From the NCBI GenBank assembly GCA_046075485.1, contig JBJTQF010000040.1:7144-71143 (forward strand): a DNA stretch of 64,000 nucleotides. Direction: 5' to 3'. Of the stretch, positions 7,283 through 54,042 are shown piece after piece. Source of the stretch: Myxococcota bacterium. GTDB taxonomy: Bacteria; Myxococcota_A; UBA796; JAJRTE01; JBJTQF01. The position numbers and the translations under genes were made by a program. The notes below the pieces were generated by a model. The model searched no databases. It was not told the DNA's origin and was given only the letters and a program-made list of their open reading frames with translations. Position 1 is the stretch's first letter; every line of letters starts with the position of its first letter.

Positions 7283-7882
7283 ATGGACAAACAGAGACGC
7301 TGGTTCTTACCCCTCGCCCTGCTCGCCGGACTCACGGCGTGTACGGGCACGGAAGACCCGAGTGAGACCCCCGATCTTTCTCCCACCGGAGAGACGGAGA
7401 GCCCCTCCGAGACCCCGACGAGCGCCACGCCCACCCCGACGAGCGCCACGCCCACCCAAGCGCCCGATACGGATGGAGATGGTCTCTTCGATGGCAACGA
7501 CAACTGTCCACCGCTTGACAATTCAGATCAAGCGGATCTCGATCAGGATGGCATCGGCGATCTCTGCGACGAAGATGTCGATGGAGATGGTTATCTGCCT
7601 GAGAATCCATTGCCCTCTCAGGTAGACTGTGATGACCGTGATGCACAGGTACATCCTTCCGCTGTGGAAGATTCATGCTCTGGCGCTGATACCAACTGTG
7701 ATGGCAGTGTGGCCTTCTGCTTTCCACCCGACGAAGGGGCTCAGCAGCTCCAAGTGGAGAGCTGCATCGGTCCCATGACCTTCACCATTGCCCCCATGCC
7801 GTGCAAGATCTGGAGCATTGTACCACCTATCGAGATGATGGCACCTTACTCTGTCGGGTGGAGCTCACATGCTCCCCCCTGA
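7283..7882 (+). CDS. Lipoprotein N-terminal segment with thrombospondin-type-3-like Asp-rich calcium-binding repeats; probably the first part of a frameshifted giant adhesin
   Basis: AAAGGAG (7268-7274) precedes ATG 7283. The signal MDKQRRWFLPLALLAGLTAC carries a lipobox, followed by a Pro/Thr/Ser-rich linker and DTDGDGLFDGNDNCP..DQDGIGDLCDEDVDGDGY repeats. The frame ends at TGA 7882, right after a C6 run (7873-7878). The +2 frame continues the ORF from there. Confidence 0.55.
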   Translation: MDKQRRWFLPLALLAGLTACTGTEDPSETPDLSPTGETESPSETPTSATPTPTSATPTQAPDTDGDGLFDGNDNCPPLDNSDQADLDQDGIGDLCDEDVDGDGYLPENPLPSQVDCDDRDAQVHPSAVEDSCSGADTNCDGSVAFCFPPDEGAQQLQVESCIGPMTFTIAPMPCKIWSIVPPIEMMAPYSVGWSSHAPP

Positions 7883-8904: not shown

Positions 8905-11900
8905 GTGGACGATAACTGTGATGGTCAGATCGACAATGGCATCAGCTATCGTGACTACTATCGAGATCAGGACGAGGATGGATATGGGGATCCCCAAGTG
9001 ATAGAGTATGCATGTCGCCTCCCCAGCGGTTATGTCTACAATGATGAAGACTGCAACGATCAGAGCGCGAGCATCTCTCCTGCCATCGCAGAGCAGTGTG
9101 ATGGCATCGATCAAGACTGTGATGGCCAAGTGGATGAAGAGGTGGCCGGCGCTCCCGACTGGTATCCCGATGTGGACGAGGATGGAGAAGGTGCCGCCAA
9201 CAGCACACCCGTCTATGCCTGCACCGCACCCGAAGGATATGTGAGCGACAACGATGACTGTGATGACAGCCACTCAGAGGTCTACCCAGGCGCACAGGAG
9301 CTGTGTGATGGACTCGACAATGACTGCGATGAGAGCGTGGATGAGCCCGAAGACTTGGTGCAGCTCTCCTGGTATCCCGATGTCGATCAGGATGGCTTTG
9401 GAGATCAAAATGCCACCCCCACGCTGTCATGTGCAGTGATCTCTGGATCGGTCACCAATCACACGGACTGCGACGACCGCCAACGCACCACCTATCCCGG
9501 TGCGCCTGAGTTTTGTGATCAGCTCGACAACGACTGTGATGGTGTGGTCGATGACAGTGTCGTCACACTCACCTGGTACGAAGATCAAGATGGAGACGGC
9601 TACGGAGATATCGCCGGTGCCACCGTCACCGACTGCAAACCCGTGTCAGGTTACGTCAACAATAGCCTCGACTGCAACGATGCCGACGATGAGATCTATC
9701 CCACGGCATTAGAACGCTGTGATCAGCTCGACAACGACTGTGATGGTGTGATCGATGATTTCTCCGCACAGACCTTTGAAATCTATTGGGCGGATCAAGA
9801 CGGAGACGGTTTTGGAGCAGGGCCCGAAGTGCTCGACTGTGTTCAGCCCGCAGGTCTGGTGACCAATGGCGATGATTGTAATGATGCCGACGATGAAATT
9901 CATCCCCAAGCCCAAGAGATCTGCGATGGAGAAGTGGACAATGACTGCGACACCTTGGCCGATGATGCCGATGCGGATACCTTAGACAGCACCCGCTTAT
10001 CATGGTATCTCGACCAAGACACGGACGGATACGGGGTCACAGGCAACACCATCCGCCGCTGCAACGGCGAATCTCCCTACTTGGCGCTTCAAGGAGCTGA
10101 CTGCGATGACGGGGACCGAACGGTCTATCCAGCAGCCATCGAGCTGTGTGATCAGCAGGACAATGACTGCGACACGCAGGTCGATGAAGGCATCAGCTTT
10201 GTGAATTGGTATCCCGACGTAGACCAAGATGGATATGGCGATCAAAATGCCGCTCAAGTAGACTGCAAAGTCCCTCAAGCTGGCTGGACCACCCAGGGCG
10301 GTGATTGCCGCGACGACCGAGCGGACATCAAACCCGGTGCGCCTGAGTTCTGCGATGGGATCGACACCGACTGCGATGACATTCTGGACGAAGGATATGT
10401 CACCCGCTACTTCCGCGATCAGGACGGGGATGGTTTTGGAGATCCCAAACGTCCATCCTGCGTGGCCGCATCCGGGCATGTACCCGTGCGGGGAGACTGT
10501 GACGATGCACGCCCTGAGATTCATCCGGGTGCAACCGATCCCTCGGATTCCATCGACCAAGACTGTGGTGGAACCACCAAAGCCGATCCCCATGTAGGAT
10601 ACGGTGTGGGCTCCAATACCAAGCTCTCCACCGCCATCTCTTCCGCAGTGAATGGTCAGACCATCTGGGTCAATGCCGGTACTTATCTGGAATACAACCT
10701 CAGCTTCAGTGGAAAGAAGATCACCGTGATCTCCTCCCACTTTGAAGACCAGACCCTCGTGGATGCGCAAAACAAAGGACGAGGCTTCTCATTTGGCAGC
10801 CTTGACACCTCGGAAGCGGTCTTGGATGGATTCACCTTCCAGAACAACAGCAATGCCATCTACAGCATCAGCAGCAGTCCGACGCTGAGGCGGATTCGAG
10901 CTCTGACCAGCAGTGGGAATGCCATTCACATCGAAGGAGGCAAACCCAACCTCTCATACTGCTATGTGAGAGATGCGGCGGGCTCGGGCATCTATGCGTA
11001 CAACTCATCGCCGCTGATCCGATACAGTCAGCTCCTGCGCAACCGCACGGGCATCTGGGTCTATCGAGGCTCCTTCAGCATGGAACACTCTCTGGTGATG
11101 GGTAATACCGGTAACTATCCAGACTATACCGGGATCTATATCATCGAAGGATCGGGCTCCGTCAGCAGCAGCATTGTGGCCTACAATCCGGGACTCAACA
11201 TCGCTTTGCGCAGCTCCGCCTTGGCGATCAGCTACAGCAACATCTACAACCCACTCGGTGCCGCTTATGTGACCACCGATACCACCAATCTCCTCACCGA
11301 GCCGGGTTTTGTCTCGTATCGTCATCGCGCCAATATTGAGGATGCGACCCTCTATCTAGGCCCCTTGTCGAGCCTTCGAGATGCGGGAAACACTGCCGAA
11401 GTGGATCCCGATGGAACACGGGCAGATATCGGTCCATTTGGTGGACCTGAAGCAGAGGCTGCATATTACATCGACGGTGAAGCCGATGGCTCAGGAGATG
11501 GACTCTACGATGGCTGGGAGCGTCAGCACGGTTTAAATCCTTCTACGCTCGATGATGCCACCGATCTCGATGGAGACGGTGTCAGCAACTTTGAGGAGCT
11601 GGAACGTCATCTGCTCCCCAATTCGGCGGATACCGACCTCGATGGTGCCTCCGATGGTATGGAGCTGAGCGCCGGCAGTAATCCGCTGGACTGGTACGAA
11701 CAGCCGGGAGAAACCTATCCGGTTGAAGCACAGGTGCCAGGCGACTTTGCCACCCTTCAAGCCGCTGTGGATGCCATCATCTCTCCGCGTGCAGGTGACA
11801 GCATCATCAGACAAGGTGCGATTGCATTGGGCCCTCTGAGTGTTGGAGGTCAATCGGCAGTGGCATATCAGAAGGTGATGCGCATCTCTGGAGCAGGAGC

Positions 11901-13686
11901 AGATCAGACGGTGCTGGAAGAGAGCTCCATTCGGGTCTATCACAGCACCCTCAAGCTCTCAGACGTGGCGCTCTCTGAGAGCTCCGCCAGTGGGGTTGCC
12001 TGTCTCAATACCTCTGTTTGTACCATCACTGGCGTGGACAGTGATATGCATGCGGTGCATGGCTTTAACCTCCAAGGAGGGAGTCAAGCGACGTTAACCG
12101 ATGTCTCGGCTTCCAACAATGGGGGCACGGGTATTTATGTGTACTCCACCGTCACTGCGACATTGGATGAGGTGCTGCTTTCGGCAAACAAGGCCGCAGC
12201 GGGTGGAGGTCTTGATATCTCGATGGGCTCCACCGTCAACATGACGGACTTCATCATCAGCGACCACTCGAATACACGCGGTGGAGGGATTGTACTCGAG
12301 CGCACGACGCGGGAGGTCTCCACCATCTATGGAGAAGGAGTGCTCAAGGCGGAGCGTGGGTCGATTGTCAAAAATGTGTCGTCCTCTCATGGTGGGGGCG
12401 TCTATATCAACTATGGGACTCCCTCGTTTATCGATGTACTCTTTGAAAAGAATGTCTCCGGGACACATGGGGGAGGTTTTTTCAGTCAATATGCCACCAG
12501 CAACTTCACGGACTGCGACTTTTACGAGAACTCATCCGTGAGTTCGGGAGGGGGAGCCTACCAATATTCTGGGACGATGAACCAGACACGAGGGCGGTTT
12601 CTCGACAATACATCTGCACTGGGAGGAGCCATTCGAGGGAATCAGATGGCCCTTAGCCTCAAAGAAGGCAACTACTTTGAAGGAAACTCGGCAACTCAGG
12701 ATGGAGGCGCGGTGGCCTTCAACGATGGTAGTTTCTCTGCCAATGTCGGCAGTCAGTTCTATCGAAACTCGGCGGGGGGACGAGGAGGAGCCATCCACTT
12801 GTTTAATGCCTCGGGCAGCATGCTCTGGGGCCGCTATATCGAGAACCAGGCACGCGATGCGGGGGCGATCTACTTTCTGAAGTCCACACTCACCCTCAAA
12901 AATGGGCGTTTTATTCAGAATACGGCGGAGTACGACGGCGGTGCCATCTTGATGAATGAGTCGGGCACCTCCACTCAGGTGTTCTCGAACCTGCGTTTTG
13001 AGGGGGGCTCTGCTCGAAAGGGAGGGGCGATGAGGCTGTATCTGTCGAATCCGACCCTCTCCAACCTGCTTTTTATCAACAACCAGGCGTCGGAGCAGGG
13101 CGGGGCGCTCTACATCGACAACGCTTCTCCGCTGCTGAAGCACTTGGTGATGGTGCGGAATCAAGCCGGGCAGGGCGGAGCGGCGCTGCTGGGTGTGGGG
13201 GCTAAACCGACGGCCTCGGAGCTGATCGTGGCGTACAATAGTCCCGACAACCTGCGGCTGGAGGACACGGCAGCACCCACCTTAACGTTCAGTGTGCTCT
13301 ACAATCCTGCTTCTTATTCCAACCACAACCTGAGCAGTCCGGCGGGCACGCTCTATACCTCTGAGCCTGCTTTCTTGCGTTACACAGATGTGACCTCCGG
13401 CGCTAGCTGCTCGCCGGGCAACCACATGAGCTGTCTGCCGGTGGATTACCATCTTGCCAGCGGAGGATTTTCAGTGGGAAAAGGCACCACCGGCGGCAAA
13501 GACGTGGACAACTCCACCCTCGACCTGGGGATTTATGGCGGAGCTCTTGGGGATGACTGGAATCTCGACTACGATAAAGTGGTGGATTGGTTCTGGCCGG
13601 GCCCGATCTCAACGCCGCCTCCCGGTTATAACGTGTTGAACTACGACTGTAATGATCTCTCGGCGAGCCAACAGAGCGGGTGCTGA
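8905..13686 (+). CDS. Giant cell-surface protein: about nine MopE-type putative metal-binding repeats, then a right-handed beta-helix region with Chlamydia-Pmp-like GGA[ILV] repeats
   Basis: Repeats of the form YxDxDGDGYG..C..P.GYV...DC[ND]D....YPGA.E.CDG.DNDCDG.VDE are PF11617-like. Downstream are many GGAI/GGAL/GGAV + FxxN repeats (QDGGAVAF, GRGGAIHLF, DAGAIYF, YDGGAILM, EQGGALYI). It is in frame with the previous ORF, 63 nt after its TAA. Confidence 0.7.
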   Translation: MDDNCDGQIDNGISYRDYYRDQDEDGYGDPQVIEYACRLPSGYVYNDEDCNDQSASISPAIAEQCDGIDQDCDGQVDEEVAGAPDWYPDVDEDGEGAANSTPVYACTAPEGYVSDNDDCDDSHSEVYPGAQELCDGLDNDCDESVDEPEDLVQLSWYPDVDQDGFGDQNATPTLSCAVISGSVTNHTDCDDRQRTTYPGAPEFCDQLDNDCDGVVDDSVVTLTWYEDQDGDGYGDIAGATVTDCKPVSGYVNNSLDCNDADDEIYPTALERCDQLDNDCDGVIDDFSAQTFEIYWADQDGDGFGAGPEVLDCVQPAGLVTNGDDCNDADDEIHPQAQEICDGEVDNDCDTLADDADADTLDSTRLSWYLDQDTDGYGVTGNTIRRCNGESPYLALQGADCDDGDRTVYPAAIELCDQQDNDCDTQVDEGISFVNWYPDVDQDGYGDQNAAQVDCKVPQAGWTTQGGDCRDDRADIKPGAPEFCDGIDTDCDDILDEGYVTRYFRDQDGDGFGDPKRPSCVAASGHVPVRGDCDDARPEIHPGATDPSDSIDQDCGGTTKADPHVGYGVGSNTKLSTAISSAVNGQTIWVNAGTYLEYNLSFSGKKITVISSHFEDQTLVDAQNKGRGFSFGSLDTSEAVLDGFTFQNNSNAIYSISSSPTLRRIRALTSSGNAIHIEGGKPNLSYCYVRDAAGSGIYAYNSSPLIRYSQLLRNRTGIWVYRGSFSMEHSLVMGNTGNYPDYTGIYIIEGSGSVSSSIVAYNPGLNIALRSSALAISYSNIYNPLGAAYVTTDTTNLLTEPGFVSYRHRANIEDATLYLGPLSSLRDAGNTAEVDPDGTRADIGPFGGPEAEAAYYIDGEADGSGDGLYDGWERQHGLNPSTLDDATDLDGDGVSNFEELERHLLPNSADTDLDGASDGMELSAGSNPLDWYEQPGETYPVEAQVPGDFATLQAAVDAIISPRAGDSIIRQGAIALGPLSVGGQSAVAYQKVMRISGAGADQTVLEESSIRVYHSTLKLSDVALSESSASGVACLNTSVCTITGVDSDMHAVHGFNLQGGSQATLTDVSASNNGGTGIYVYSTVTATLDEVLLSANKAAAGGGLDISMGSTVNMTDFIISDHSNTRGGGIVLERTTREVSTIYGEGVLKAERGSIVKNVSSSHGGGVYINYGTPSFIDVLFEKNVSGTHGGGFFSQYATSNFTDCDFYENSSVSSGGGAYQYSGTMNQTRGRFLDNTSALGGAIRGNQMALSLKEGNYFEGNSATQDGGAVAFNDGSFSANVGSQFYRNSAGGRGGAIHLFNASGSMLWGRYIENQARDAGAIYFLKSTLTLKNGRFIQNTAEYDGGAILMNESGTSTQVFSNLRFEGGSARKGGAMRLYLSNPTLSNLLFINNQASEQGGALYIDNASPLLKHLVMVRNQAGQGGAALLGVGAKPTASELIVAYNSPDNLRLEDTAAPTLTFSVLYNPASYSNHNLSSPAGTLYTSEPAFLRYTDVTSGASCSPGNHMSCLPVDYHLASGGFSVGKGTTGGKDVDNSTLDLGIYGGALGDDWNLDYDKVVDWFWPGPISTPPPGYNVLNYDCNDLSASQQSGC

Positions 13687-23536: not shown

Positions 23537-24538
23537 GTGAGTCAAGGGGAACAGATCGACGCTGAGCAAGGCGTCTCAAGCCAAGAGGGCTCGTCGGAGG
23601 CGGTCAATCCACCTCGAGCGCGAGACCGACACGGCAAGCAGGTGCTGCGTATTTTGGCGGCTCCGCGTCTGGTGGAGACGGAGCGGGAGCATACGCCGGT
23701 GGTGCGCACGGATGTGTTGTTGCGTCCGGGGCCCGCGCTGCCGTCGGAGGCGGGGTTGCTGGCTCAGTTTGTGGACCATCGAATGGCGTTGGTGGAGCTG
23801 TTTAGCGGTCGTCCACGTCGTTCGGAGCTGTGGCATGCGCGTGCGAAGGGCTTGCTGGCCCTGGATGAGCTTCCGCTGGTGCCGATGAGTCGGCCTCCCT
23901 TTGGGTTGTGTCAGGTGCTGATTGGGATAGGGTCGCCTCATCGTGCTCTGGAGGGCGCATTTAAAAGCCTGCGGTGGAGGGTGGTCGAGCCGGGGCTTCA
24001 TTGTTATGATGATGTATATGAGCTGGTATACGTGGATCTGCTGCGACTGGGATTGAGGTTGGAGACGGCATGGCTTCACATCTTGGGGGCGGGCCCCTGG
24101 ATGGTAGAGGCATTCGGGCTGCTCCTGCAAACGGGTCGTGAGCTGGATCGACGCTGGATCAACACATTGCTGAGTGAGGGACGAACCATGCCATCTGTTC
24201 AGAGTGCGCTGCGTTCGCCAGAGCTGCTGGCGGAGCAGGAATATGTAACACGAAGCTGGGAGCTGGCGCATGCGAGTGTGCTGGCGGAGCTGAAGGGCAG
24301 GCAGGAAGGTCGGCAGGAAGGACAGGAGGAAGGCACCCTCAAAGGAGAGCGAGAGGCCATCCGCTTGGTGCTCAAGGCTCGGTTTGGTTTTGTCCCTCCA
24401 GACCTCGAGCCGGAGCTGGGGAGGGTCTCCTCACTGGAGGCGCTCAACGAGCTGATCACCGCAGCAGCGACCCGAACAGTGCCGGAGGTGGTCCAGCTTG
24501 CACAACGGCTGGCTCGGCCTCTTCCTTCATCCCCCTGA
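23537..24538 (+). CDS. Hypothetical protein whose C-terminus resembles the DUF4351 tail of Rpn/YhgA-family PD-(D/E)XK recombination-promoting nucleases
   Basis: GGAGGG lies 7 nt upstream of GTG 23537. The C-terminal EGRQEGRQEGQEEGTLKGEREAIRLVLKARFGFVPPDLEPELGRVSSLEALNELITAAATRTVPEVVQL fits the DUF4351 pattern (EG..EG repeat, RFG.vP..l...l......LE.L......A.S..E). The N-terminal part is not recognisable. Confidence 0.4.
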   Translation: MSQGEQIDAEQGVSSQEGSSEAVNPPRARDRHGKQVLRILAAPRLVETEREHTPVVRTDVLLRPGPALPSEAGLLAQFVDHRMALVELFSGRPRRSELWHARAKGLLALDELPLVPMSRPPFGLCQVLIGIGSPHRALEGAFKSLRWRVVEPGLHCYDDVYELVYVDLLRLGLRLETAWLHILGAGPWMVEAFGLLLQTGRELDRRWINTLLSEGRTMPSVQSALRSPELLAEQEYVTRSWELAHASVLAELKGRQEGRQEGQEEGTLKGEREAIRLVLKARFGFVPPDLEPELGRVSSLEALNELITAAATRTVPEVVQLAQRLARPLPSSP

Positions 24539-36999: not shown

Positions 37000-37459
37000 T
37001 GTTCTTTTGGGCTCAATTCTTTGGGGCTCAATTCTTTGGGGCTGGAGCTTCTTCGGATGCGTCGCTGCGTTCATGGGGCCTCCCGTCTTTCGGTTGTGGA
37101 TCTGCAAGGCGTGGATTTGACGCTTACTTGCATCTGGATGCAGCTTGCAGAACTTTGCAGCGGTGTCAATCAGAGAATGGTGCAGACGCATGAAGCGCAC
37201 GAGCCCAGCGGTAACGCTTCAGTGTAGATGTCATCCACCACCGAGAACAGCTCCAGGCCCCCATTTTCCCTTTACATCTCCCCCTCCTTTTCGATAACAT
37301 CTGCCCCGGTTTTGCGGATCGTAGTTTGGTTGTGTCGCCCCGCGCAGCGCCTCTCGTATGTGCTCTCCCCCTCTTCGTGCGCCCCGAAGAGTCGTCTCTG
37401 TGCCCCAGGCTCGCCCGAGTCTGAGGCACTCTCACGACTACTTTTTGAGGGTGACTGTT

Positions 37460-40400
37460 ATGGAGATCGTCTCTGAGTTTTTAACGCCCCCCACTCACGG
37501 CGCATCCGCCCAGGTCTTGGCCATCGTCGGAGTCGGTGTCTGCTCACCACTCGCGCCTTCGGCGCTCCACACCTGGCGCAGAGCCCGCGCTCAGGCCGAC
37601 GCCCGCCTCGGCTTCCACGTCCGAGCTCGGTATGCGCCGATCATCACCTGCTCGTCGAGGCACCTCCGCCAAAAGCTGGAGCAATACCCCGAGGATCTCC
37701 CCGCCCTCGAGAACCTCCTGCTCCACGCACAGCTCCTCCACCGAGTGATCGAGGAGGCGATGGGGTCTTCTCACACGCTCGCGGATGCACACACAGATGC
37801 GCACACAGATGCGCACACAGATGCGCACACAGATGCGCACACACACGAGCTCTACCTGCTCGGCACACACGCGGAAGCCGTCGAGCTCCATGAGACACTC
37901 TCCGCATTACAATCACCGCTGGCAAGCATCCGCATACGCTGCTTCTCTCCTTCTCTGGAGGGATTCTATCAAGCACTCACCCACGCCACGCAACGCATGA
38001 CGTGTACCACACGCACGCCCACCCGGATCCTCCTGGCGGGCGCATGTCTCACCACCCGCGCACCGTTCTGGAAATCACCCCTCGGATTCCAATGTCTCAA
38101 GCAGGGCTCGACACCCGGAGATGCAGCGGTGGCACTCCTGCTCGAATTGGCTCCCACTCAGACGCCTGCGCTGGCGTATCTGCGCAGCCATAGCCTTGAG
38201 TCGATGCCGCCCGCACCGTCTCCAGAGGTCATCCCCGCTTTTGAGACCCTCTTAACCCTGCTCCAGCATGGAAAGGTAAGGGATGCACCCTCCGAATGGC
38301 AACCCTGGCTTCAAAAGAAGCTCCCCCATCATGCTCAAGCCCTGCTCAAAAAAGAGCTCCGAGACACACTCCTGCTGCAATATGAGCTGCCCGGTCTGCT
38401 GAGACTTAAGGCTCAACTTCGCGCACAACAGATGCTCAAGGAGCCGATTCAAAAACTTCAGACGGTGGTGTCAGAGCTCATCGGATTGCCAGAAGAGTGC
38501 TCCTCTCTGGCACTCGCAAGCTGCCTCGCCGGACCCGTCCCCGTGACACATCACCACCCCCTCTTGAGGATGGGACGAAGCCTGCCCGCCGTCGATGCAC
38601 TGCTGCTGCTGGCGTTCTCTACTCTGGAGCTGTGCAGCGGTATCCAGTGGGAAGAAGTCTCCGATCTCAGCGCAGAAGAAGAGACGCTCCCGCCAGCGCC
38701 TCCAGCACTGCTCATGAGCATCGAACAACGACCGCTGGTGAAGTATGTGGATGCCGATGCCCTGACTCCTTCTCCACATGAAGCGGCGTTTGCAGCGATT
38801 CTCAGCGCAGGAGATGCACCGCTGAAGCAGGTCATATCTGGAGGCATCGAACGTCCCAAGTTTACTACGAACCAGCAGGCAATCTACTACAGAACATTGG
38901 ATATCACACTGCCAGAAGAACGCACGCTCTTTGTACGACTCTGCTCAGGCTCCGTGGTACACTCGCTCCGGCATCCAGGCTTTTCGATGCGGCTCCTCTA
39001 TCCCACACATTCGCAGGAGGATGTGGAGCAGACAGAGCAGCTCTGTCGGCGATATCAGCACATGCTCTCGGATCCATATGCTCTATCTGACGAGCGTTTA
39101 CAGCTCCAGCAGCAGCTTCAGGAGGCACTCAGTCGGGTGCAGCTTGAGCTGGAGACACGGCCTCCCGCTCAGATGATGCTCTCGATCTGGCTGACGGTGG
39201 CGGAGCAACAATGGTGGCGACTGGAATCCACGGAGCCAAGCCTCCATACGCTCAGCGAGCGAGGGCAGGATCAGCTTACACATCTGTCTCGGGTGATGGG
39301 CTTAAGAGCGGGTACACTCCGGCAGACAGAGCGGCTCATACAGTGGCTCAGCGGAGGCAATCCCTTTGAGACACGGGTGGCGCTTCGGGTGCTCACCCAT
39401 CACCATCGGCTGGAGATACTGCCGCAGCTCGAGCGTCTGCTCTCCAGCCCCAATCAAGGACTCCGGGAGGAGGCATTATGGGCACTCTCGTATCTGCTCC
39501 ACGATCACGGACGGCTGATTCCAGAGGCATGGGGAGAAGGAGATCGTGGAGCATGGCTTCGTGGTTTGGCGGAGCGTGTGCAGCAGGCTCAACTGGAGCT
39601 TCTCCAGCAGTGTGACTGTGATTGGACTCAGGAAGGACTGCTCTCACTGGAGAGCCGAACGTTGGCACATCTCCGGGCTGCGTTGCGCCTGCGTCCGTAT
39701 GAGGTCTTACGCTGGGCGATCCAGGTCATGGAGGGGAAGGCGGAGGCTCATGGGCTGGCACCGCTGGTCCTGGCGCTGTGTCATGCACAGACACCTCGGC
39801 TCAAGGAGTGGCTGATCAAGGGGACTCAAACGGAGACGTTTGTGAGAGGTGCGTGGTTGGGATTGGCGCTGGTGGGAAAACGAGGCTGGCTGTTGGAGGC
39901 GCTGAGGCAGGCTCAGGAATATGCAGAGAAGGGCAAGAGACGAGTGGTATATTCCGGGAGATCAGGCTGGACCTACTGGTATCTGATCAGCGGATATACT
40001 CCCGATGCAGTGGCGCGTGAAGTGCCTCTCCCGATGGAGGAGCTGCGTCATCTGCTGGAGCGTTCGCTTCAACAAGAGCAGGTCGAGGGGCAAGATGCAG
40101 CGGAGACACGCTGGAGAATGGGAACAGTATGGCATGGGCTGAGGGTGGCGAATTGTTTGCCGGAGGTCTCGGGAGGGGTTCAGGCGCTGTTTTTGCTGGA
40201 GCTGGCGCAAAAGACGGCGCAAGAGGGGGCCTATCTGTGGACGGGTGCGTTGCCAGATCTCGAAAAGCAGCGTCGATTTTATGTGCAGAGACTGCTGCCG
40301 CGTGCGTTATCGGTGGAGCATCGACTGAAGCTGTTGAAGCGGATTCAGGGGGAGTCCTCGGGGCGGCCTCGTCGAGGTGGGGAGGTGCGGGAGGTGCAGG

Positions 40401-41506
40401 GAGGGCAGGTGGTGGAGGGCATTTCGGTGGTGGGGCGAGGGCAAGGTGGGATGGTGGCGCGAGGGGTGGGTCCATACATCAACAGCAGTGGGGTGCCGGT
40501 GATGGTGCCGACGGAGGGCAAACTGTCGGGTTTGAAGGGGGGTGCGTTGTCGGTGCAGACGGGGGGGCGTCCCTGGATGTTGCAGGGGAGTCGGCTGAAG
40601 ACGGAGGGGGATGCTCTGCCGGGTCTGGTGGGTGCGCTGAGTGGGCAGACGGGGGGTGCGGTGCTGCCTGTGTTTGGAGGGTCGAGGCTGCTGGTGGAGC
40701 GGCAACTTTTCCAGCGAGACGGGGATCTGGTGTTGATGAACGGGGGGAATCACCCGGGGGTGCTGCGGTTGGGTCAAGCTTCGGGAGGAGGAGGGCTGGG
40801 ATTTTCGCAAGGTGGAGGGGAGGCGCTGTGTGAGTATTGTGGGAAGCCGCAGCATACGTTTCCGAAGGGGGGCTCATTGGTGTACAGCTCCCCGTTGCTG
40901 AGAAAGTCGCTGGGTGCGGATGAGTGGTGGATGCCGACTCCGGCGGGGGACGAGCGGGTGAATGCGCATCACCTGCTGGTGGGGGAGGTGATGCGGGCGG
41001 AGGTGGACCGACCTCGGGACTTGGAGACGTTTGGGATCAACATCAACGAGGGATGGAATGGGGTGCTGCTGCCTGCAACGTTGGTTTTGGCGTGTCATTT
41101 TCATCAGCCCTTACATCGGGGCAACCACCGTGCGGGCCAGTCATTTGAAAGCGGGCAGGGCATTCCGATGCAGAGAGAACTAGAGCTGAGGTTGAATAAG
41201 GTCTCCGAGGAGGTGCAGGCGGGGGTATACTGTACCCAACCGGAGCGCCTGAAGCAGCGGCTGGAGGCGTTGGCCCAAGAGGTGTGTGACAAGCTGGCCC
41301 GTTTTGAGTGGACGCTGACCTGGGATGGACGAGACTATCGGGAGGGAGGCCCCGGCTGTGCCGGACACCGAGGGCTGGTGGTCAAACGCAGGGCGTGTGA
41401 AGAAGCCACCCGCGAGAACCAGCCAGATCCCACTTGTCCTCATCAGCGGAAACACGTTACCATCACTCGAGCCAGACCCAGCGGTCCCTTAAAGCCGGGT
41501 CGCTGA
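37460..41506 (+). CDS. Large polymorphic-toxin-like protein with HEAT-like repeats, a Gly-rich pre-toxin region and a C-terminal AHH (HNH/EndoVII-fold) nuclease domain
   Basis: The C-terminus has NAHHLLVGEV ... NINEGWNGVLLPATL ... CHFHQPLHRGNHRAGQ, matching the AHH family signature ([AG]HH, N..LP, H.G.H). The middle has PBS-lyase HEAT-like repeats (LRVLTHHHRLEILPQLERLLSSPNQGLREEALWALSYLL). Start ATG 37460 follows GAGGG; the long ORF opens at 37358. Confidence 0.6.
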   Translation: MEIVSEFLTPPTHGASAQVLAIVGVGVCSPLAPSALHTWRRARAQADARLGFHVRARYAPIITCSSRHLRQKLEQYPEDLPALENLLLHAQLLHRVIEEAMGSSHTLADAHTDAHTDAHTDAHTDAHTHELYLLGTHAEAVELHETLSALQSPLASIRIRCFSPSLEGFYQALTHATQRMTCTTRTPTRILLAGACLTTRAPFWKSPLGFQCLKQGSTPGDAAVALLLELAPTQTPALAYLRSHSLESMPPAPSPEVIPAFETLLTLLQHGKVRDAPSEWQPWLQKKLPHHAQALLKKELRDTLLLQYELPGLLRLKAQLRAQQMLKEPIQKLQTVVSELIGLPEECSSLALASCLAGPVPVTHHHPLLRMGRSLPAVDALLLLAFSTLELCSGIQWEEVSDLSAEEETLPPAPPALLMSIEQRPLVKYVDADALTPSPHEAAFAAILSAGDAPLKQVISGGIERPKFTTNQQAIYYRTLDITLPEERTLFVRLCSGSVVHSLRHPGFSMRLLYPTHSQEDVEQTEQLCRRYQHMLSDPYALSDERLQLQQQLQEALSRVQLELETRPPAQMMLSIWLTVAEQQWWRLESTEPSLHTLSERGQDQLTHLSRVMGLRAGTLRQTERLIQWLSGGNPFETRVALRVLTHHHRLEILPQLERLLSSPNQGLREEALWALSYLLHDHGRLIPEAWGEGDRGAWLRGLAERVQQAQLELLQQCDCDWTQEGLLSLESRTLAHLRAALRLRPYEVLRWAIQVMEGKAEAHGLAPLVLALCHAQTPRLKEWLIKGTQTETFVRGAWLGLALVGKRGWLLEALRQAQEYAEKGKRRVVYSGRSGWTYWYLISGYTPDAVAREVPLPMEELRHLLERSLQQEQVEGQDAAETRWRMGTVWHGLRVANCLPEVSGGVQALFLLELAQKTAQEGAYLWTGALPDLEKQRRFYVQRLLPRALSVEHRLKLLKRIQGESSGRPRRGGEVREVQGGQVVEGISVVGRGQGGMVARGVGPYINSSGVPVMVPTEGKLSGLKGGALSVQTGGRPWMLQGSRLKTEGDALPGLVGALSGQTGGAVLPVFGGSRLLVERQLFQRDGDLVLMNGGNHPGVLRLGQASGGGGLGFSQGGGEALCEYCGKPQHTFPKGGSLVYSSPLLRKSLGADEWWMPTPAGDERVNAHHLLVGEVMRAEVDRPRDLETFGININEGWNGVLLPATLVLACHFHQPLHRGNHRAGQSFESGQGIPMQRELELRLNKVSEEVQAGVYCTQPERLKQRLEALAQEVCDKLARFEWTLTWDGRDYREGGPGCAGHRGLVVKRRACEEATRENQPDPTCPHQRKHVTITRARPSGPLKPGR
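37784..37848 (+). repeat. In-frame 12-bp microsatellite (gatgcgcacaca, about 5 copies) encoding (HTDA)5 inside the toxin gene
   Basis: Direct reading. It translates to AHTDAHTDAHTDAHTDAHTH. Confidence 0.8.
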
Positions 41507-41519
41507 GAGGAGTAGCGCC

Positions 41520-42335
41520 ATGAACGACACCTATGAGCAAGACTATTTTGTCTATTATCCACCGCCCTTCTCAGAGGCATTTCCCTACCCCCGCCTTGCG
41601 TGGGGAGAGACCAGCAGCGGGCCTTTCCACAAAGGTCGGGTGTTGGAACGTAAACAATATCCAGAGTTTGTGGAGTGGACGCGGGTCAAGAAGCCCCAAT
41701 ATCCCGAGTGTTTTAAGCTCAGCGGAACGTGGCCGGTGGTGGCGGAGCGTGTGTGGAGCGTGCTGGCGGCCCTGAATCTGTACGGGATGGACCTGCACCC
41801 AGCCCGAGTCCTGACCCGCAAGAAGGAAAACCTTCCCAACTATAAGCTCGTACATGTCTGGAATAAGTTTCTTTGTATCGACCGGGAACGCTCTCAAGCG
41901 ACTTGGGAGGAATTCCCGGAAAATCGCATCCGTGAGCCGATTTCGCTCCGGCTGGACCGGGAGGTGATGGCCGCCATTCCCCTCGAGCGGCGCCTGGTCT
42001 TTCGCCCTGAAGAAGAGAGCGTCGCCGTGGTCTTTCACCGGACGGTGGTGGAGAAGCTCATGGCGATTCGGCCCACCGGCATCATGTTTGCCCCTTTTGC
42101 GACCGCCAATTATCGCTGGCTCTACCAAGTCTTCGAGACACCCTTTCCACCGGTGGTGCCAGAAAAGCCGTCGCTGCTGCGAAAGCCTCCGACCCTGGCC
42201 AATCAGTTTGCGGCGCGAAAGCTGGAGGTCAAACCGAGCCGTCCGAAGATCGAGCGTCCGCCCCGCATCGAAACCAAAGAGCTGTTTGCTCAGATGAAAG
42301 CGGAGTCCGCCCGGCGTCGAGCTGGGAAAGAGTAA
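41520..42335 (+). CDS. Candidate cognate immunity protein for the upstream AHH toxin
   Basis: It starts 14 nt after the toxin stop on the same strand. It has no signal peptide and is Trp/Tyr/Pro-rich (YEQDYFVYYPPPFSEAFPYPRLAW...). I cannot assign a family by eye. Confidence 0.4.
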   Translation: MNDTYEQDYFVYYPPPFSEAFPYPRLAWGETSSGPFHKGRVLERKQYPEFVEWTRVKKPQYPECFKLSGTWPVVAERVWSVLAALNLYGMDLHPARVLTRKKENLPNYKLVHVWNKFLCIDRERSQATWEEFPENRIREPISLRLDREVMAAIPLERRLVFRPEEESVAVVFHRTVVEKLMAIRPTGIMFAPFATANYRWLYQVFETPFPPVVPEKPSLLRKPPTLANQFAARKLEVKPSRPKIERPPRIETKELFAQMKAESARRRAGKE

Positions 42336-46971: not shown

Positions 46972-48813
46972 TCAGAACATGACCTCAATCGCCGAGCGGT
47001 CGCCGCTCAGGATCTGCTGCGCTTTCCACTCATTCTGAGACAAGATCTGGTGGATAAAGAACTTCGCCGTCTGAACCTTGCTGGCATAAAAACGGGCGCT
47101 GGTGTTGTTCTCCAGCCATGCGGCGAGGGCGGCATTTTCGCTGGGAGCGCCGAGCTCGGCGAGTTTGGCGGAGGCAATGACGGCCTGCTGGAGCAGGAAG
47201 TATCCGACCACGACATTCCCCAACACGGTCAGGTACGGTGAGGCACCGAGGGCGGCGACTTTCACATCATCCTGAGCGCGAGCACCGAGGAAGGCGGTGA
47301 CTTCGGCCACTTGTTTACCCGCTTTGGCGAGCATTCCGACTTCTTTGGCGAGCTGAGCATGGTTGAGCTGGGAGCCGATCCAGCCGCTCATTTCCTTGCT
47401 GAAGCTCTTGAGCAGTGCGCCTCCACCGCTGAGCACCTTTCGGAAGAGCAGGTCGATGGCCTGGATGCCGTTGGTGCCTTCATAGATGGGGGCGATCCGG
47501 GCATCGCGGAAATACTGCTCGGCGGGATAATCGGCGGTATAGCCGCTGCCGCCGTACACTTGGAGGGCAACCGAGCAGGCTTCCACGCCAGAATCAGAGC
47601 CCCACGCCTTACAGATGGGGGTAAGCAGTGCCAAACGACCGGCGGCTTCGTTGCGTGCGCCTTCATCCTCTGCGCTCTCTGAGATGTCGAGCGCCAGGGA
47701 GGTGGCCAGCATGAGGGCGCGGCCTCCTTCGGCGAGGGCCTTCACGGTCATGAGCATGCGGCGCACGTCGGGATGGTTGACGATGGTGACCTTCTTATCG
47801 GAGACGCGCTTTCCTTCCGAGATATCCGAGCCCTGGATGCGCTCTTCGGCGAACTTGAGGGCACTAAAGTACATGGCGGAGGCCAGAGCTTGTCCCTGGA
47901 GACCGACCACAATACGTTCCTCATTCATCATGTGGAACATGCACTTGATGCCTTCGTTCTCGCCGCCGACGAGCCAGCCGATGCAGTTATCCTGGTCTCC
48001 GAAGTTCATGACGCAGGTGGGGGAGCTGTGGATGCCGAGCTTCTCTTCGACTTTGGAGGCGCGCACATCGTTATCGACGCTGAAGTTGCCCTCGGCATCA
48101 GGCCGGAAGCGGGGCACCAAAAACAGCGAGAGGCCCTTCACGCCGCTGGGGGCATTGGGCAACCTGGCCAGCACCAGGTGGATGTGGTTCTCGGCGAGCT
48201 GGTGTTCTCCGCAGGTGATGTAGATCTTGGTGCCTTTGATGGAGAAGCTGCCGTCGCCGACGGGGATGGCGCGGGTGAGGCTGGCGCCGACGTCACTCCC
48301 GGCTCCGGCTTCGGTGAGACACATGGTGCCTTGCCACTCGCCGGAGATGAGGCGGGGCACGTAGGTATCGATCAGCTCTTGGCTGGCGTGGTGGACCAGC
48401 AGGTTGGAGGCGGCGCGGCACAGGCCCAGATAGGTGTGCAGGGCCGGGTTGGAGCCAATGACGAGCTCATCGATGGCGGTGCCGATGGTCTTGGGGAGTG
48501 CTTGGCCGCCCAGCTCGGTGGGGGCGACCAGGCCGATCCAGCCTGCTTCTTTGATGGCGTTCCAGACTTCGCGGTAGTGTTCGGGCACCTTAACGTGGCC
48601 GTCTTCGATCTTGCAGCCGGTGAGGTCTCCAGAGCGATTGGAGGGGGCGACGACGTCGGACGCAAAATCGACACCTGCTTGCAGGATCATGCGCACATCT
48701 TCTTCGCCGACGTGTGCGAAGGCACCCTGGCCCAGAATGGCTTGAAAGGGCAGGTGCTCAAACAGAACGAACTCAAGGTCTCGAAGATTGGCAGTATAGG
48801 TGCTGGTATGCAT
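46972..48813 (-). CDS. Acyl-CoA dehydrogenase (long, FadE/AidB-like with an N-terminal extension)
   Basis: ACAD motifs present: GTMCLTEAGAGSD..., YGGSGYTADYPAEQYFRDARIAPIYEGTN. About 613 aa. Confidence 0.8.
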   Translation of the reverse strand: MHTSTYTANLRDLEFVLFEHLPFQAILGQGAFAHVGEEDVRMILQAGVDFASDVVAPSNRSGDLTGCKIEDGHVKVPEHYREVWNAIKEAGWIGLVAPTELGGQALPKTIGTAIDELVIGSNPALHTYLGLCRAASNLLVHHASQELIDTYVPRLISGEWQGTMCLTEAGAGSDVGASLTRAIPVGDGSFSIKGTKIYITCGEHQLAENHIHLVLARLPNAPSGVKGLSLFLVPRFRPDAEGNFSVDNDVRASKVEEKLGIHSSPTCVMNFGDQDNCIGWLVGGENEGIKCMFHMMNEERIVVGLQGQALASAMYFSALKFAEERIQGSDISEGKRVSDKKVTIVNHPDVRRMLMTVKALAEGGRALMLATSLALDISESAEDEGARNEAAGRLALLTPICKAWGSDSGVEACSVALQVYGGSGYTADYPAEQYFRDARIAPIYEGTNGIQAIDLLFRKVLSGGGALLKSFSKEMSGWIGSQLNHAQLAKEVGMLAKAGKQVAEVTAFLGARAQDDVKVAALGASPYLTVLGNVVVGYFLLQQAVIASAKLAELGAPSENAALAAWLENNTSARFYASKVQTAKFFIHQILSQNEWKAQQILSGDRSAIEVMF

Positions 48814-48995
48814 GTGCGACTCTCTTCCCAAAGGGTTGATGGATGCTGACGTGTCTTAATGGTATCACCGCCGACTCTCTGCAACGAGCACGCGGGCGGC
48901 TTCTCATGCGTGCATCGTGATAGCATCGATTTTGGCTCGAGGATAGCCCTTCGCACACCTCAAGGGACTGTGATGTCGGAAATCGGGGGGAGGAT

Positions 48996-51108: not shown

Positions 51109-54042
51109 ATGCAGATGTTGTCGCCTGAGCTGTCTTACTTTACGCCGAGCATGATGAAACCCGCGCTCTTGGAAGCTGTTTTTGTTAAACGCGCCCCGAT
51201 GCTTGAGCACCTGCTGACGCAAGTACACCAAGGGCTGATGGGTGGGAGTCTCCCCCAGGTCTTGTTGATGGGGCCACGCGGGATGGGCAAGACCCATCTG
51301 ATCAGCTTGCTCTACCATCGAGCAGCCGCCCTCCCCGACGTGCAGGAGCGCGCCTGTATCGCATGGCTCAAAGAAGAAGAATGGAGTGTGGATTCGTGGC
51401 TGGAGCTGCTTCGGGTCATCTTACAAGCCCTGTTGCAGCGAGACCCCCTTGCCAAAGCCTCCGGTGTGTCGCTCAAGGACCAGCTTGCCACCCTCCATCA
51501 TGCGGGAAGTATCGAGGAGGCAACCCGACGTGTTGAGCAGCTTCTGCTGAGCTATTTAGCCGGTCGGCGGATGTTGCTGTTGATGGAAAATCTTGATCAG
51601 ATCTTTGAAGGTCTCCAAGAGGAAGGTCAGCGACGTTGGCGTGCTTTCCTTCAGACCCATGCCAATACCTGCATTGTGGCGACCAGCCAAAGTCTCTTTG
51701 CAGGCATTACCGCACATTCGCAACCTTTCTACGGCTTCTTTCGGCAGGAGCACCTCGAGTCCTTTACCCTCGACGATGCGTGCCAGATGTTGGCAGGGGT
51801 CGCACGGGCGCGCCAGGATGAGCCACTGGCCTGCATTATTGAGCAACCCGAGGGTCGTGCTCGGGTGCGGGCCGTCGGTCATTTTGCCGGGGGGAATCCC
51901 CGTGTATATATGATCCTCTCTCAGTTTTTGACCCGTGAAAACCTAGATGAGCTGGTTCAGCCCTTCATGCGCATGCTCAACGAGCTGACGCCCTATTACC
52001 AGAGCCGGATGCAGACCCTCAGTCCTCAGCAGCGGAAGCTGGTGGAGTACTTGTGCCTAGAGCGAAAGCCGATCTCGGTCAAGGAGATGTCACAAAAGAC
52101 CTTTATCAAGCCGCAGACGGTCAGCTCCCAGCTCCGTCGATTGGAAGAGCTGGGATATGTGGTGGGACGAGAAGCAGGTCGTGAGACCCTCTACGAGCTA
52201 CGGGAACCGCTGATGCGTCTGACCATCGAGGTCAAACTCAACCGGGGCGAGGGAATTCCCATCTTTTTGGACTTCCTGCGGCTTTGGTATCCCCAACAGG
52301 AGCTGAAGCGCCAGCTCGACCGGCTGCCAGCCTTTGGCCTAAGCTGCACAGAGGAACGACGCCACCTTCGGATGGCCCTAGAGCTCACGGAGCAGGCTGG
52401 GGATGATCCTCGGGTCGCTGCATGCCTCCAAGATCTGAAGCAGTATGTACAGCAAGAAAACTGGGCTGATACGCTCAAGGTCACAGAGGAGCTGGTCGCG
52501 TTGAGAGGCAAAGGAGAGGACTATCTGGCTCGTGCCCAAGCCAAGTATGAACTGGATGATGTTTCTGGAGCCACGATGGACCTGGAGGAAGCCCTGAATC
52601 GCGAGCTGTCCCCGCAAGCGAAATGGGAGGCAAAAATGGAGCTGGCGTTCTGCTACTGGCTGGAGGGTGAAAACACCAAGGCCCTCGAACAGCTCCAACG
52701 TATGTCCAAAAAGGTACAGAAAAACGATAACTGGCAGCTCTTGATGATGCGTCTTCAGCTTGAGGAGGGCAACATCTCCACGGGGATGGCGCTGTTCCAG
52801 CAGCTCTTGGAAAAAACAGAGCGAGACTCCTCACGGCTGGAGAACCTCTTGTCTTGGGGCGATCCACGACAATTTGTCAGCTCTCTGACCAAGCTCAACT
52901 CCTTGTGGCTGATCTCCTGTATCAAAGAGGGTCTCTCCTACCTCGAGCTGTATTTGCAGGGGCTCCAGCTCAAGGCACAGCGCGAAGAAACGTTTGAGAA
53001 CGATGAGCTTGAACTCTTTTTTCTATTGTCCATTGTCCTGAGCACTCAGCCAGATGTCTTAGCAGAGCGATGGCGTTTCTGTGACGCCTCCATTCAGCGA
53101 CAAACAGAACATAGCAACGCATTGAGTTATCGGCTCATCACACAGTTTTACCTGGAGAAGTCTGAGAGGCTACCTCTAGGGCTGCTGCTTCACCATCAAG
53201 ACTTGTTCTGGCTGGAAATACTGAGGGGAGTGGTCGAAATCTGGAAACGGGCGCTCCAAGACCCTCGCCTTAATCTCTGGCTGCTCTTGGTGGAGTCTTA
53301 CACCAGTCTCGTAAGTAACATCACAAACATCATGAAGGAAGAAGCGGAACGAGCTCAAGACCCAACGCAGACTCCCACAGAAGAAGGGGCATCTCCAGCC
53401 GCGAGCCCATTTTTTTCGCCCTCCAGCCATGAGAAGCTGCATGAGGTTTTACAACAGGCTCAAGTCTTGACGGGACTTCCCTTTTCAGAGCTGATCTACA
53501 ATATCGCTCAGATGCTCTTATCAGAGGAGCTCTTTAAAGGTCGCCCTCAGCTTCTGGTGGCGTTACTCGTCTTGCGTTATGTGAACCTGGAGGACACCCA
53601 TCGACGCGATCTTCAGGCGCAGCTCATCGAAAAAAGCCAGACGCCAGAGCTACGAAGTATTCTCTCTATCGGGATCGTATTCTTCCATGAGCCTCGGCTG
53701 GCAAATACCTCTGAAGAGCAAACGCCGGAGCTCACGTCTCCCGCTGCTTCGGCATCACTTGGTGAAGTAGATAAAACCTCCCACACAGAGTCCCTCGAAG
53801 CAGCTCTCTCAGACCTGTTCCACCAGATGAAGGGCCATGTTACCCCGGAAGACTGGCGGAGCTTTTGGACTCCAGCCTTCGACAGCCTTCCCGAGCTGGC
53901 CACCTTCTTTCGTATTCTGGAGGTCGCCGAAGCCTACCGGCAAAAGCCTGAACGACGCATCTTACTCACCCTCCCCCTAGAGGAACGCATGATCGTGGCG
54001 GAGTACCTTAAACTTACGCATGAACAAGCAGCCATCGATTGA
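51109..54042 (+). CDS. STAND-like P-loop NTPase with wHTH and a long C-terminal TPR/helical-repeat region; paralogous to the upstream ATPase
   Basis: GGAG lies 7 nt upstream of ATG. FVKRAPMLEHLLTQV...VLLMGPRGMGKTHLISLL is the Walker A region and RMLLLMENLDQIF is Walker B. The wHTH is QQRKLVEYLCLERKPISVKEMSQKTFIKPQTVSSQLRRLEELGYV. About 550 aa of TPR-like repeats follow. Confidence 0.65.
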   Translation: MQMLSPELSYFTPSMMKPALLEAVFVKRAPMLEHLLTQVHQGLMGGSLPQVLLMGPRGMGKTHLISLLYHRAAALPDVQERACIAWLKEEEWSVDSWLELLRVILQALLQRDPLAKASGVSLKDQLATLHHAGSIEEATRRVEQLLLSYLAGRRMLLLMENLDQIFEGLQEEGQRRWRAFLQTHANTCIVATSQSLFAGITAHSQPFYGFFRQEHLESFTLDDACQMLAGVARARQDEPLACIIEQPEGRARVRAVGHFAGGNPRVYMILSQFLTRENLDELVQPFMRMLNELTPYYQSRMQTLSPQQRKLVEYLCLERKPISVKEMSQKTFIKPQTVSSQLRRLEELGYVVGREAGRETLYELREPLMRLTIEVKLNRGEGIPIFLDFLRLWYPQQELKRQLDRLPAFGLSCTEERRHLRMALELTEQAGDDPRVAACLQDLKQYVQQENWADTLKVTEELVALRGKGEDYLARAQAKYELDDVSGATMDLEEALNRELSPQAKWEAKMELAFCYWLEGENTKALEQLQRMSKKVQKNDNWQLLMMRLQLEEGNISTGMALFQQLLEKTERDSSRLENLLSWGDPRQFVSSLTKLNSLWLISCIKEGLSYLELYLQGLQLKAQREETFENDELELFFLLSIVLSTQPDVLAERWRFCDASIQRQTEHSNALSYRLITQFYLEKSERLPLGLLLHHQDLFWLEILRGVVEIWKRALQDPRLNLWLLLVESYTSLVSNITNIMKEEAERAQDPTQTPTEEGASPAASPFFSPSSHEKLHEVLQQAQVLTGLPFSELIYNIAQMLLSEELFKGRPQLLVALLVLRYVNLEDTHRRDLQAQLIEKSQTPELRSILSIGIVFFHEPRLANTSEEQTPELTSPAASASLGEVDKTSHTESLEAALSDLFHQMKGHVTPEDWRSFWTPAFDSLPELATFFRILEVAEAYRQKPERRILLTLPLEERMIVAEYLKLTHEQAAID

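Follow-up and report, generated by a model that had tools for sequence, protein, structure and literature searches.

The pairing of AHH nucleases with Imm11 proteins is a documented toxin–immunity combination (Zhang 2012, PMC3482391; PMC12077181). The closest described systems are short effector–immunity pairs of type VI secretion systems (T6SS), in which a PIPY (DUF4150) domain is joined to an AHH toxin domain and an Imm11 gene follows; examples are known from Archangium (P0061), Myxococcus qinghaiensis (P0069) and Vibrio cholerae (P0059), and MXAN_0050/MXAN_0049 of Myxococcus xanthus is such a pair (cited in PMC12077181 and PMC8651086). DUF4150, now renamed PIPY, is a PAAR-like cone that caps VgrG (PMC11883445). 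Its P(I/V)P(Y/F) motif forms the hydrophobic core (Sachar 2025, PMC11883445), and DUF4150 domains need chaperones (PMC11883445). Here, we compare these systems with a toxin–immunity locus in a 64,000-nt stretch of a Myxococcota bacterium (GCA_046075485.1, contig JBJTQF010000040.1, positions 7,144 to 71,143 of the forward strand; hereafter the window), in which a PIPY-AHH toxin of this kind carries about 985 additional N-terminal residues.

Three further systems share parts of this architecture. In the 'synteny type A' or Class II Tvp islands (vgrG1b-Tse7, Proteus pef), genes for DUF6484, DUF2169 and PRK06147 proteins precede the DUF4150 effector gene. For example, the PA0095-PA0101 island of Pseudomonas aeruginosa encodes VgrG1b, a DUF6484 protein, the DUF2169 protein TvpA, the PRK06147 protein TvpD, Tse7, Tsi7 and a HEAT protein (PMC11883445; PMC13373197), and TvpD (PA0098) is predicted, from structural modelling, to be a co-chaperone of the Tse7 PAAR-like domain (PMC13373197). 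The second group consists of natural fusions: the domain most commonly fused to PRK06147 is TIGR02270, and 3.8% of PRK06147 homologs are such fusions; as a separate gene, PAAR lies directly downstream of PRK06147 in 52% of cases (Liu et al. 2020, PMC7714669). The place of the TIGR02270 HEAT component is variable; in the P. aeruginosa-type island its gene is described as lying after that of the immunity protein, and in two Burkholderiaceae T6SS islands (L092 6730-8004 and L096 1869-3239) it is encoded upstream of DUF2169. Finally, the AHH and Imm11 families recur in SitA5-type myxobacterial outer-membrane-exchange toxins (PMC12077181).

The locus consists of one large toxin gene and one immunity gene (Table 1). 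The toxin is predicted to be built, from the N-terminus onward, of a TvpD-like thiolase-like domain, a helical HEAT/ARM solenoid, a PIPY PAAR-like domain and an AHH nuclease. It is best read, and probably correctly, as a T6SS spike-tip nuclease effector with a co-chaperone fused in cis and an adjacent Imm11 protein. The toxin–immunity core is ordinary and already known; the novelty lies in a rare fusion in cis that places a TvpD-like domain and a helical solenoid before PIPY-AHH. In short, a helper protein that is usually encoded by a separate neighbouring gene appears to have been fused onto the front of the toxin.

Table 1. Features of the toxin–immunity locus (positions in the window; aa, residues of the toxin unless a gene length is given)
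Feature	Position	Strand	Basis
Toxin gene, 1348 aa	37460..41506	+	ORF and translation, Pfam, alignment with P0001, L002/L003 and L004
Degenerate ketosynthase/thiolase-like domain, TvpD/PRK06147-like (candidate), aa 19-425	37514..38734	+	hhalign
Tandem repeat of 12 nt x 5 (GATGCGCACACA), in frame and coding for (DAHT)n, inside the thiolase-like domain	37784..37843	+	Tandem Repeats Finder
Best TvpD-aligned segment, aa 155-251	37922-38212	+	hhalign
All-helical solenoid with HEAT/ARM-like repeats, aa 505-960	38972..40339	+	Pfam, AlphaFold2, Foldseek
PIPY (DUF4150) PAAR-like spike-tip domain, aa 986-1102	40415..40765	+	Pfam (below cutoff), hhalign, phmmer
AHH His-Me-finger nuclease toxin domain, aa 1122-1348	40823..41503	+	Pfam, alignment, AlphaFold2
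13-nt spacer with ribosome-binding site GAGAGGAG	41507..41519	+	Sequence
Immunity gene, 271 aa	41520..42335	+	Pfam Imm11

The toxin is encoded by a single uninterrupted open reading frame (ORF) on the plus strand, whose longest form spans 37358-41506 and whose stop codon lies at 41504-41506. Translation probably begins at the ATG at 37460: a GAGG precedes it, and the N-terminus predicted from it aligns with that of a relative (P0004). As the short spacer to the immunity gene contains a ribosome-binding site, the two genes are taken as a translationally linked operon. Neither paralogs nor orphan copies of either gene were found within the window, no Rfam family matched anywhere in it, and promoter and terminator scans of it gave chance-level results only.

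The C-terminal domain is assigned most firmly. Pfam AHH (PF14412, HNH/EndoVII superfamily) matches aa 1154-1224 (40919-41131) with 32.6 bits against a gathering cutoff of 22.3. The AHH signature comprises conserved [AG]HH, N, H and H residues (Zhang 2012, PMC3482391); here, A1169-H1170-H1171, N1196/N1200, H1215, H1219 and H1223 are present and invariant across the alignment with relatives. A model by AlphaFold2 (AF2) from a 43-sequence alignment is confident over this part, with a predicted local distance difference test score (pLDDT) of about 90. With a CxxC at 1124/1127, the domain is, by its residue pattern, a member of a Cys-rich AHH subfamily, and it is a putative DNase of the polymorphic-toxin type. 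A search with the AHH region returned 94 homologs at E <= 1e-5, all of 146-393 aa and none longer, which fall into AHH-only proteins of about 235-250 aa (Myxococcus, Pyxidicoccus, Corallococcus), DUF4150+AHH proteins (PF13665+PF14412) of about 360-375 aa (Myxococcus, Archangium, Vibrio cholerae) and a few DUF4280+AHH proteins. The subfamily thus occurs alone, with DUF4150, with DUF4280 and with a long extension, and it has Imm11 adjoining. A preliminary description, drawn up from the DNA letters, had recognised a giant polymorphic-toxin-like protein with a C-terminal AHH domain and a neighbouring immunity candidate; this is borne out, the protein being a polymorphic-toxin-type nuclease with a cognate-type immunity gene beside it.

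The immunity candidate named there, a 271-aa cytoplasmic ORF, has likewise held up. It matches Imm11 (PF07791) over aa 61-193 with 22.9 bits, only marginally above the cutoff of 22.1; the Imm11 domain covers aa ~1-200, no signal peptide is present, and the protein is 29-38% identical over ~200 aa to the Imm11 proteins that adjoin short PIPY-AHH toxins. An Imm11 gene lies 3-4 nt downstream of the short DUF4150-AHH gene in four of the five loci examined (L085, L086, L087, L089); in the fifth (L088, Vibrio cholerae), a 197-aa gene with no Pfam match on record lies 3 nt downstream. One of the long relatives described below (L003) also has an Imm11-like N-terminus starting after the toxin stop. The immunity protein ends in a tail of ~70 aa rich in Pro, Lys and Arg (aa ~200-271, 42120-42335), which has no counterpart in the 192-195-aa Imm11 proteins of the short relatives. 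An exact database look-up of the immunity protein gave no match.

Immediately in front of the toxin domain lies the region that the preliminary description had noted as Gly-rich with GG[AS]xx motifs. It had listed PAAR among the delivery domains that are absent, together with RHS, LXG, WXG, haemagglutinin and lipoprotein modules. The other absences stand, as none of these was found and there is no lipobox, but that of PAAR does not: to judge by profile comparison, the Gly-rich region is itself a complete DUF4150/PIPY domain and not a linker. Pfam Tox-PAAR-like (DUF4150, PF13665) covers profile positions 20-108 of 108, at 17.2 bits against a cutoff of 31. When aa 985-1107 of four family members were aligned by hhalign with eight canonical DUF4150 sequences, the probability was 97.8% (E 1.2e-12, 116 columns), and template columns 9-130 of 133 were matched. 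Ten phmmer matches (P0005-P0014), including PF13665 proteins, also concern this region. The AF2 model is moderate here (pLDDT 53-81). The signature motif is degenerate, reading PVMV in the toxin (aa 1013-1016), PVML in the relative P0001 and PVLL in relative B; the positions are still hydrophobic, but neither the third Pro nor the aromatic residue is retained. Because the Gly-rich region is a full DUF4150/PIPY domain, the last ~360 aa equal a canonical T6SS PIPY-AHH effector.

The toxin is 31-40% identical to the short effectors over the whole 228-aa toxin region, with a common Cys/His pattern, and has the same order of a PAAR-like domain directly before the toxin domain and an Imm11-type gene directly behind. 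These effectors are 331-389 aa long and begin with PIPY, whereas here ~985 further residues precede PIPY, its motif is degenerate, and the immunity protein bears the basic, Pro-rich ~70-aa tail. From the SitA toxins, which are lipoproteins with a signal peptide and lipobox, the toxin differs in having neither and a PAAR-like domain instead. An N-terminal extension is also seen in Pseudoalteromonas piscicida (NZ_CP074588.1; L090 11440-24235), where a 374-aa protein has DUF4150 at aa 204-306 behind a ~200-aa N-terminal extension, followed by a 1075-aa ORF without Pfam matches and eight tandem paralogous ORFs of ~320 aa that resemble an immunity-type array; the record is unannotated. A plasmid tblastn search with a canonical PIPY domain returned only a Pseudoalteromonas locus, which is no Tvp cluster.

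The first domain of the extension was compared with proteins whose genes lie between those for DUF2169 and DUF4150, taken from Caballeronia, Ralstonia, Paracoccus and Burkholderia contaminans. This TvpD set was found via DUF2169 genes on plasmids, and two of its four proteins are annotated as 'beta-ketoacyl synthase'. The N-domain family matched it in hhalign with E 7.6e-5, a probability of 61.9% and a score of 42.0 over 92 columns; 100 column shuffles scored 13.6 +/- 2.1 (maximum 22.8), corresponding to z 13.2, and the reversed alignment scored 16.3. Ketosynthase-like motifs are recognisable in the domain (VLAIVGVGVCSPLAPSALHTW; ILLAGACLTTR; PGDAAVALLLE). Weak matches point in the same direction: the sole match of the N-domain profile in the Protein Data Bank (PDB) is beta-ketoacyl-acyl carrier protein (ACP) synthase II at E 0.44, and the sole NCBIfam match of P0004 is a beta-ketoacyl-ACP synthase at E 0.15. 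Against E. coli FabF, hhalign gave a probability of 2.9% and z 5.5 with colinear motifs, which is suggestive only, and its global mode was uninformative. The catalytic Cys is conserved neither in the N-domain family nor among the TvpD proteins. Taken together, and bearing in mind the partial coverage and moderate probability, aa ~19-425 may be described as a catalytically dead thiolase-like domain of the TvpD type. The N-terminus had been considered atypical; it is not unclassifiable, as its first domain appears homologous to thiolase-like T6SS accessory proteins.

The domain also stands where a TvpD protein would be expected, N-terminal to PIPY on the same polypeptide, and as a separate ORF 160 nt upstream in one relative (L002). 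No DUF2169 (TvpA) gene adjoins it, either among the scanned window ORFs or on the contigs L001 and L002, against 74% of PRK06147 homologs. Within the domain, the tandem repeat (period 12, 5.0 copies, 97% matches) is missing at that position from the relatives; it could be a length-variable microsatellite. In P0001, a different in-frame repeat, (ADR)n, occurs elsewhere in the thiolase-like domain.

The HEAT-like repeats that had been noted in the N-terminal part are real: within the mid-region, Pfam Arm (27.7 bits, cutoff 20.6) and HEAT_2 (22.9-26.6 bits) match at aa 624-680 (39329-39499). Structure prediction gave an all-helical mid-region (pLDDT 40-87), for which Foldseek found weak matches in the PDB, the best at E 0.07 and all to HEAT/ARM proteins; the model of the N-domain, by comparison, was unreliable. 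TIGR02270 proteins match HEAT_2 and HEAT_PBS; the identification of the mid-region with the TIGR02270 protein of T6SS islands was rejected (z 0.33). The 517-aa HEAT-like protein encoded nearby (33125-34678) was likewise rejected as a relative of the mid-region, being unrelated.

With these domains, the locus resembles a Class II Tvp island in that a thiolase-like TvpD part and a HEAT-type helical part are combined with a DUF4150 toxin, its nuclease being of the HNH superfamily, and with the gene for immunity, and in that the TvpD part lies immediately upstream of the DUF4150 effector part. The islands have these as separate genes beside vgrG, DUF6484 and DUF2169, whereas here they form one polypeptide at an orphan locus; Tse7 carries Tox-GHH2 and the present toxin AHH; and the helical region here has no detectable relation to TIGR02270. 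The PRK06147-TIGR02270 fusions are similar in joining a thiolase-like adaptor candidate to a HEAT-type domain. In the literature examined, no PAAR-like domain and toxin are described behind these fused domains, and homology of the present solenoid to TIGR02270 was tested and not found.

The extension is rare. An exhaustive phmmer search with aa 1-1200 among 1.84 billion representative proteins gave 14 matches at E <= 0.001, and only three of them concern the N-terminal ~985 aa (P0001, P0002 and P0004), the latter two being fragments. The region is thus unusual, as the preliminary description had said, with its extent corrected from 1100 aa to about 985 aa. P0001 (1268 aa) has the same architecture and is 33% identical over aa 634-1348 plus aa 158-254. 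Re-analysis of the relatives' contigs by tblastn yielded four relatives with the extension: P0001; L004, a close relative with 60% identity over aligned aa 425-1181, a frameshifted stretch included; and L002 and L003, which represent a third lineage. Domain order and the 985-aa extension have been kept at 33% identity across at least three lineages, which argues for selection. L004 has two frameshifts (~360-700); in L002 (1-3677), an ORF of its own encodes the first ~416 aa (P0004) and the remainder lies in a second ORF 160 nt downstream; and L003 has an in-frame TAG (1752-1754) where L002 has CAG. All metagenomic relatives from the runs ERR14822404 and ERR14822417 are disrupted. The disruptions in L002, L003 and L004 may be assembly errors, strain-level toxin inactivation or genuine split genes. 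No further members were found in a scan of GTDB genome contigs with the toxin or in two scans of JGI metagenome contigs. Word-indexed alignment searches with the whole protein and with the N-domain returned nothing at E <= 10, in an index that seemingly lacks Logan-derived proteins or in which low-complexity words saturate. The 400-aa gene upstream of the Archangium relative was rejected as an N-domain homolog, as it shows no relation.

If the toxin is indeed a T6SS effector, the PIPY cone would cap a VgrG trimer whose gene lies elsewhere in the genome, the firing T6SS would carry the whole protein into a neighbouring cell, and the AHH nuclease would degrade DNA there. The cytoplasmic Imm11 protein from the same operon would, from what is known of the family, bind and neutralise the nuclease in the producer and its kin. 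The TvpD-like domain could shield and position the hydrophobic PIPY cone in cis before loading onto VgrG, and the solenoid may be a spacer, a scaffold or an extra binding surface. Such an architecture might have originated when an upstream tvpD-like gene fused with the effector gene; L002 keeps the thiolase-like domain as a separate ORF.

Several observations weigh against this reading. First, a search for T6SS loci found no T6SS, VgrG or DUF2169 genes among the ~40 ORFs scanned in the window, so that delivery by a T6SS is only inferred. Secondly, the PIPY domain scores under the Pfam cutoff and its signature motif is degenerate, and a 985-aa N-terminal load before a PAAR-type cone would be sterically unusual. 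Thirdly, the match to TvpD has a probability of 62% and is limited to ~92 columns; the N-domain is matched above threshold by no model of Pfam or NCBIfam; its AF2 model, built from three sequences, has a pLDDT of 37, so that the fold matches are a weak pointer only; and the domain may be as close to true ketosynthases as to TvpD. In addition, the mid-region had no NCBIfam match at E <= 10 and an hhalign score of 15.5 against two TIGR02270 proteins (z 0.33), and three relatives have frameshifts, a stop codon or a split.

The missing T6SS genes leave room for delivery of the same toxin–immunity pair by an extracellular contractile injection system (eCIS) or an unknown route that uses the N-terminal region as an export or targeting module. 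PAAR homologs also sit on eCIS spikes (PMC8651086); the weakness of the PIPY match and motif would fit such a route, and the lineage is poorly sampled, the best match of a housekeeping protein (acyl-CoA dehydrogenase) being 62-64% identical, to metagenome-assembled genomes labelled Planctomycetota, Myxococcota or Gammaproteobacteria. We nevertheless hold this explanation to be unlikely. None of the five short PIPY-AHH loci examined lies inside a T6SS cluster, and because the short relatives are likewise orphan loci far from such clusters, the lack of local T6SS genes is normal. All characterised DUF4150 contexts examined are T6SS, the N-domain matches a T6SS-specific accessory family, and DUF2169/Tvp systems are reported in Myxococcota and Planctomycetota (PMC13373197). 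The preliminary description had called the delivery route unclear; with a DUF4150/PIPY domain directly preceding the toxin domain, and with the most similar proteins standing in T6SS clusters after VgrG and DUF2169, a T6SS is now indicated. The closest PIPY relative by phmmer (P0005), for example, directly follows VgrG and DUF2169 in a complete T6SS cluster.

It is also conceivable, and in our view quite improbable, that the N-terminal region is no delivery adaptor and has an enzymatic or other cytoplasmic role, or is an inert relic of fusion. The TvpD match is partial, and when the hhalign path is extended, C161 aligns, at low confidence, with the catalytic Cys163 of FabF. That Cys, however, is found in the toxin alone, P0001 and P0004 having R or A in its place, and the N-domain family does not preserve the catalytic His-His residues; TvpD proteins too lack a conserved Cys, and the conservation of domain order and extension across the lineages described above speaks for selection. 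The last alternative, a decaying or phase-variable toxin that is no working weapon, is suggested by the interrupted relatives, the in-frame 12-nt x 5 microsatellite and an extreme density of G-tracts, but is hardly probable given that the 4047-nt ORF is uninterrupted, that the catalytic residues and the tightly coupled immunity gene are intact, and that the relatives with disruptions were taken from automatic Logan assemblies, which may contain errors.

The codon usage of the toxin gene forms a separate subject. An extreme preference for G at third codon positions (G3) had been taken as a sign of horizontal origin. The bias is real for codons ~650-1200, and at codons ~850-1100 it does exceed that of other genes, with G3-C3 (C3, C at third positions) of 0.55-0.61 against a maximum of 0.48 (mean -0.03, standard deviation (sd) 0.19) for the other window genes. 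It is not extreme over the whole gene (G3 0.44, C3 0.23), which is matched or exceeded by three other window genes, and the first 150 codons are C3-rich. The third-position GC skew is -0.26 over codons 1-150, rises to +0.80 at codons 901-1050 and falls to +0.24 thereafter. The density of GGG at 40001-41000 (85 per kb) is the window maximum, about 5 sd above the mean (21 +/- 13), and one canonical G-quadruplex motif lies on the coding strand at 40379. Third-position preference for G or C is strikingly heterogeneous among window genes: G3 is about 0.50 and C3 about 0.16-0.21 in those at 23537-24538, 32130-33119 and 33125-34678, which are distributed over both strands, while neighbouring genes are rich in C3 (0.53 at 46972-48831, for example).

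The proposal of horizontal origin is not sustained by these values. The GC content of the toxin gene (0.607) matches the window, local genes are equally G3-rich, and the gene of P0001 (L001 6126-9932), which belongs to another genome, has a matching skew gradient of -0.04 to +0.89 to -0.20, with flanking genes that are not G3-rich; the short PIPY-AHH genes have no G3 gradient. Since a 33%-identical homolog shows the same gradient and its neighbours do not, foreign origin alone does not explain the bias. A shadow antisense gene was rejected as its cause: the antisense frame with coinciding third positions contains no long ORF. Selection may have shaped the ramp of G-ending codons, whose maximum lies immediately ahead of and over the PIPY domain; for example, it could make translation pause so that the cone is captured co-translationally, or act as a G-rich element for recombination or regulation before a swappable toxin.

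The surroundings of the locus contain other genes of possible relevance. Divergent from the toxin gene, 35044-37200 on the minus strand encodes a 718-aa protein with Amidase_2 (N-acetylmuramoyl-L-alanine amidase) in its C-terminal half and a coiled-coil-like N-terminal half. It is followed by the 517-aa protein of 33125-34678 (minus strand), which is strongly G3-rich at the gene level and has one predicted hydrophobic helix and a weak HEAT_2 match. These two genes may be a second effector-like pair or ordinary cell-wall genes. Farther away, 7190-7882 (plus strand) encodes a 230-aa MopE/TSP3 protein, and after it 8905-13686 (plus strand) encodes a 1593-aa protein in which right-handed beta-helix and Chlamydia PMP repeats accompany at least eight MopE-type 'putative metal-binding motif' repeats. 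Upstream of them lie the genes of an FG-GAP protein and a TonB-dependent receptor, and the ensemble resembles a surface-protein cluster; the TonB-dependent receptor indicates a diderm host. On the other side of the toxin, a 351-aa ORF without a family match precedes the gene of a 977-aa AAA_16 ATPase (51109-54042, plus strand), which has a winged-helix (MarR/HTH_24) domain and TPR repeats and is a STAND-like regulator.

The significance of the locus lies in the dependence of PIPY/DUF4150 effectors on DUF2169/TvpA chaperones and, in Class II, also on the predicted co-chaperone TvpD, whose role is known from structural modelling only. Because a TvpD-like domain is here naturally fused to its PIPY-toxin client, the locus provides 'Rosetta-stone' evidence that TvpD and PIPY act directly on each other, and the fusion offers a single-chain construct for studying that interaction. 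The conserved G3 gradient is a separate signal that could bear on the translation or recombination of long toxins. A bolder proposal, which we put forward tentatively and consider doubtful, is that of a 'self-chaperoning' T6SS effector, in which a dead TvpD domain and a solenoid are fused in cis to the PIPY cone and a G-codon ramp is possibly selected as well; if true, an orphan toxin could manage its folding, shielding and loading onto VgrG independently of the DUF2169/TvpD genes, which PIPY effectors otherwise require in trans. The finding is of moderate interest and mainly for T6SS specialists. It shows how, in a lineage that is poorly sampled, an orphan toxin–immunity cassette might bring along the factor for its own loading.

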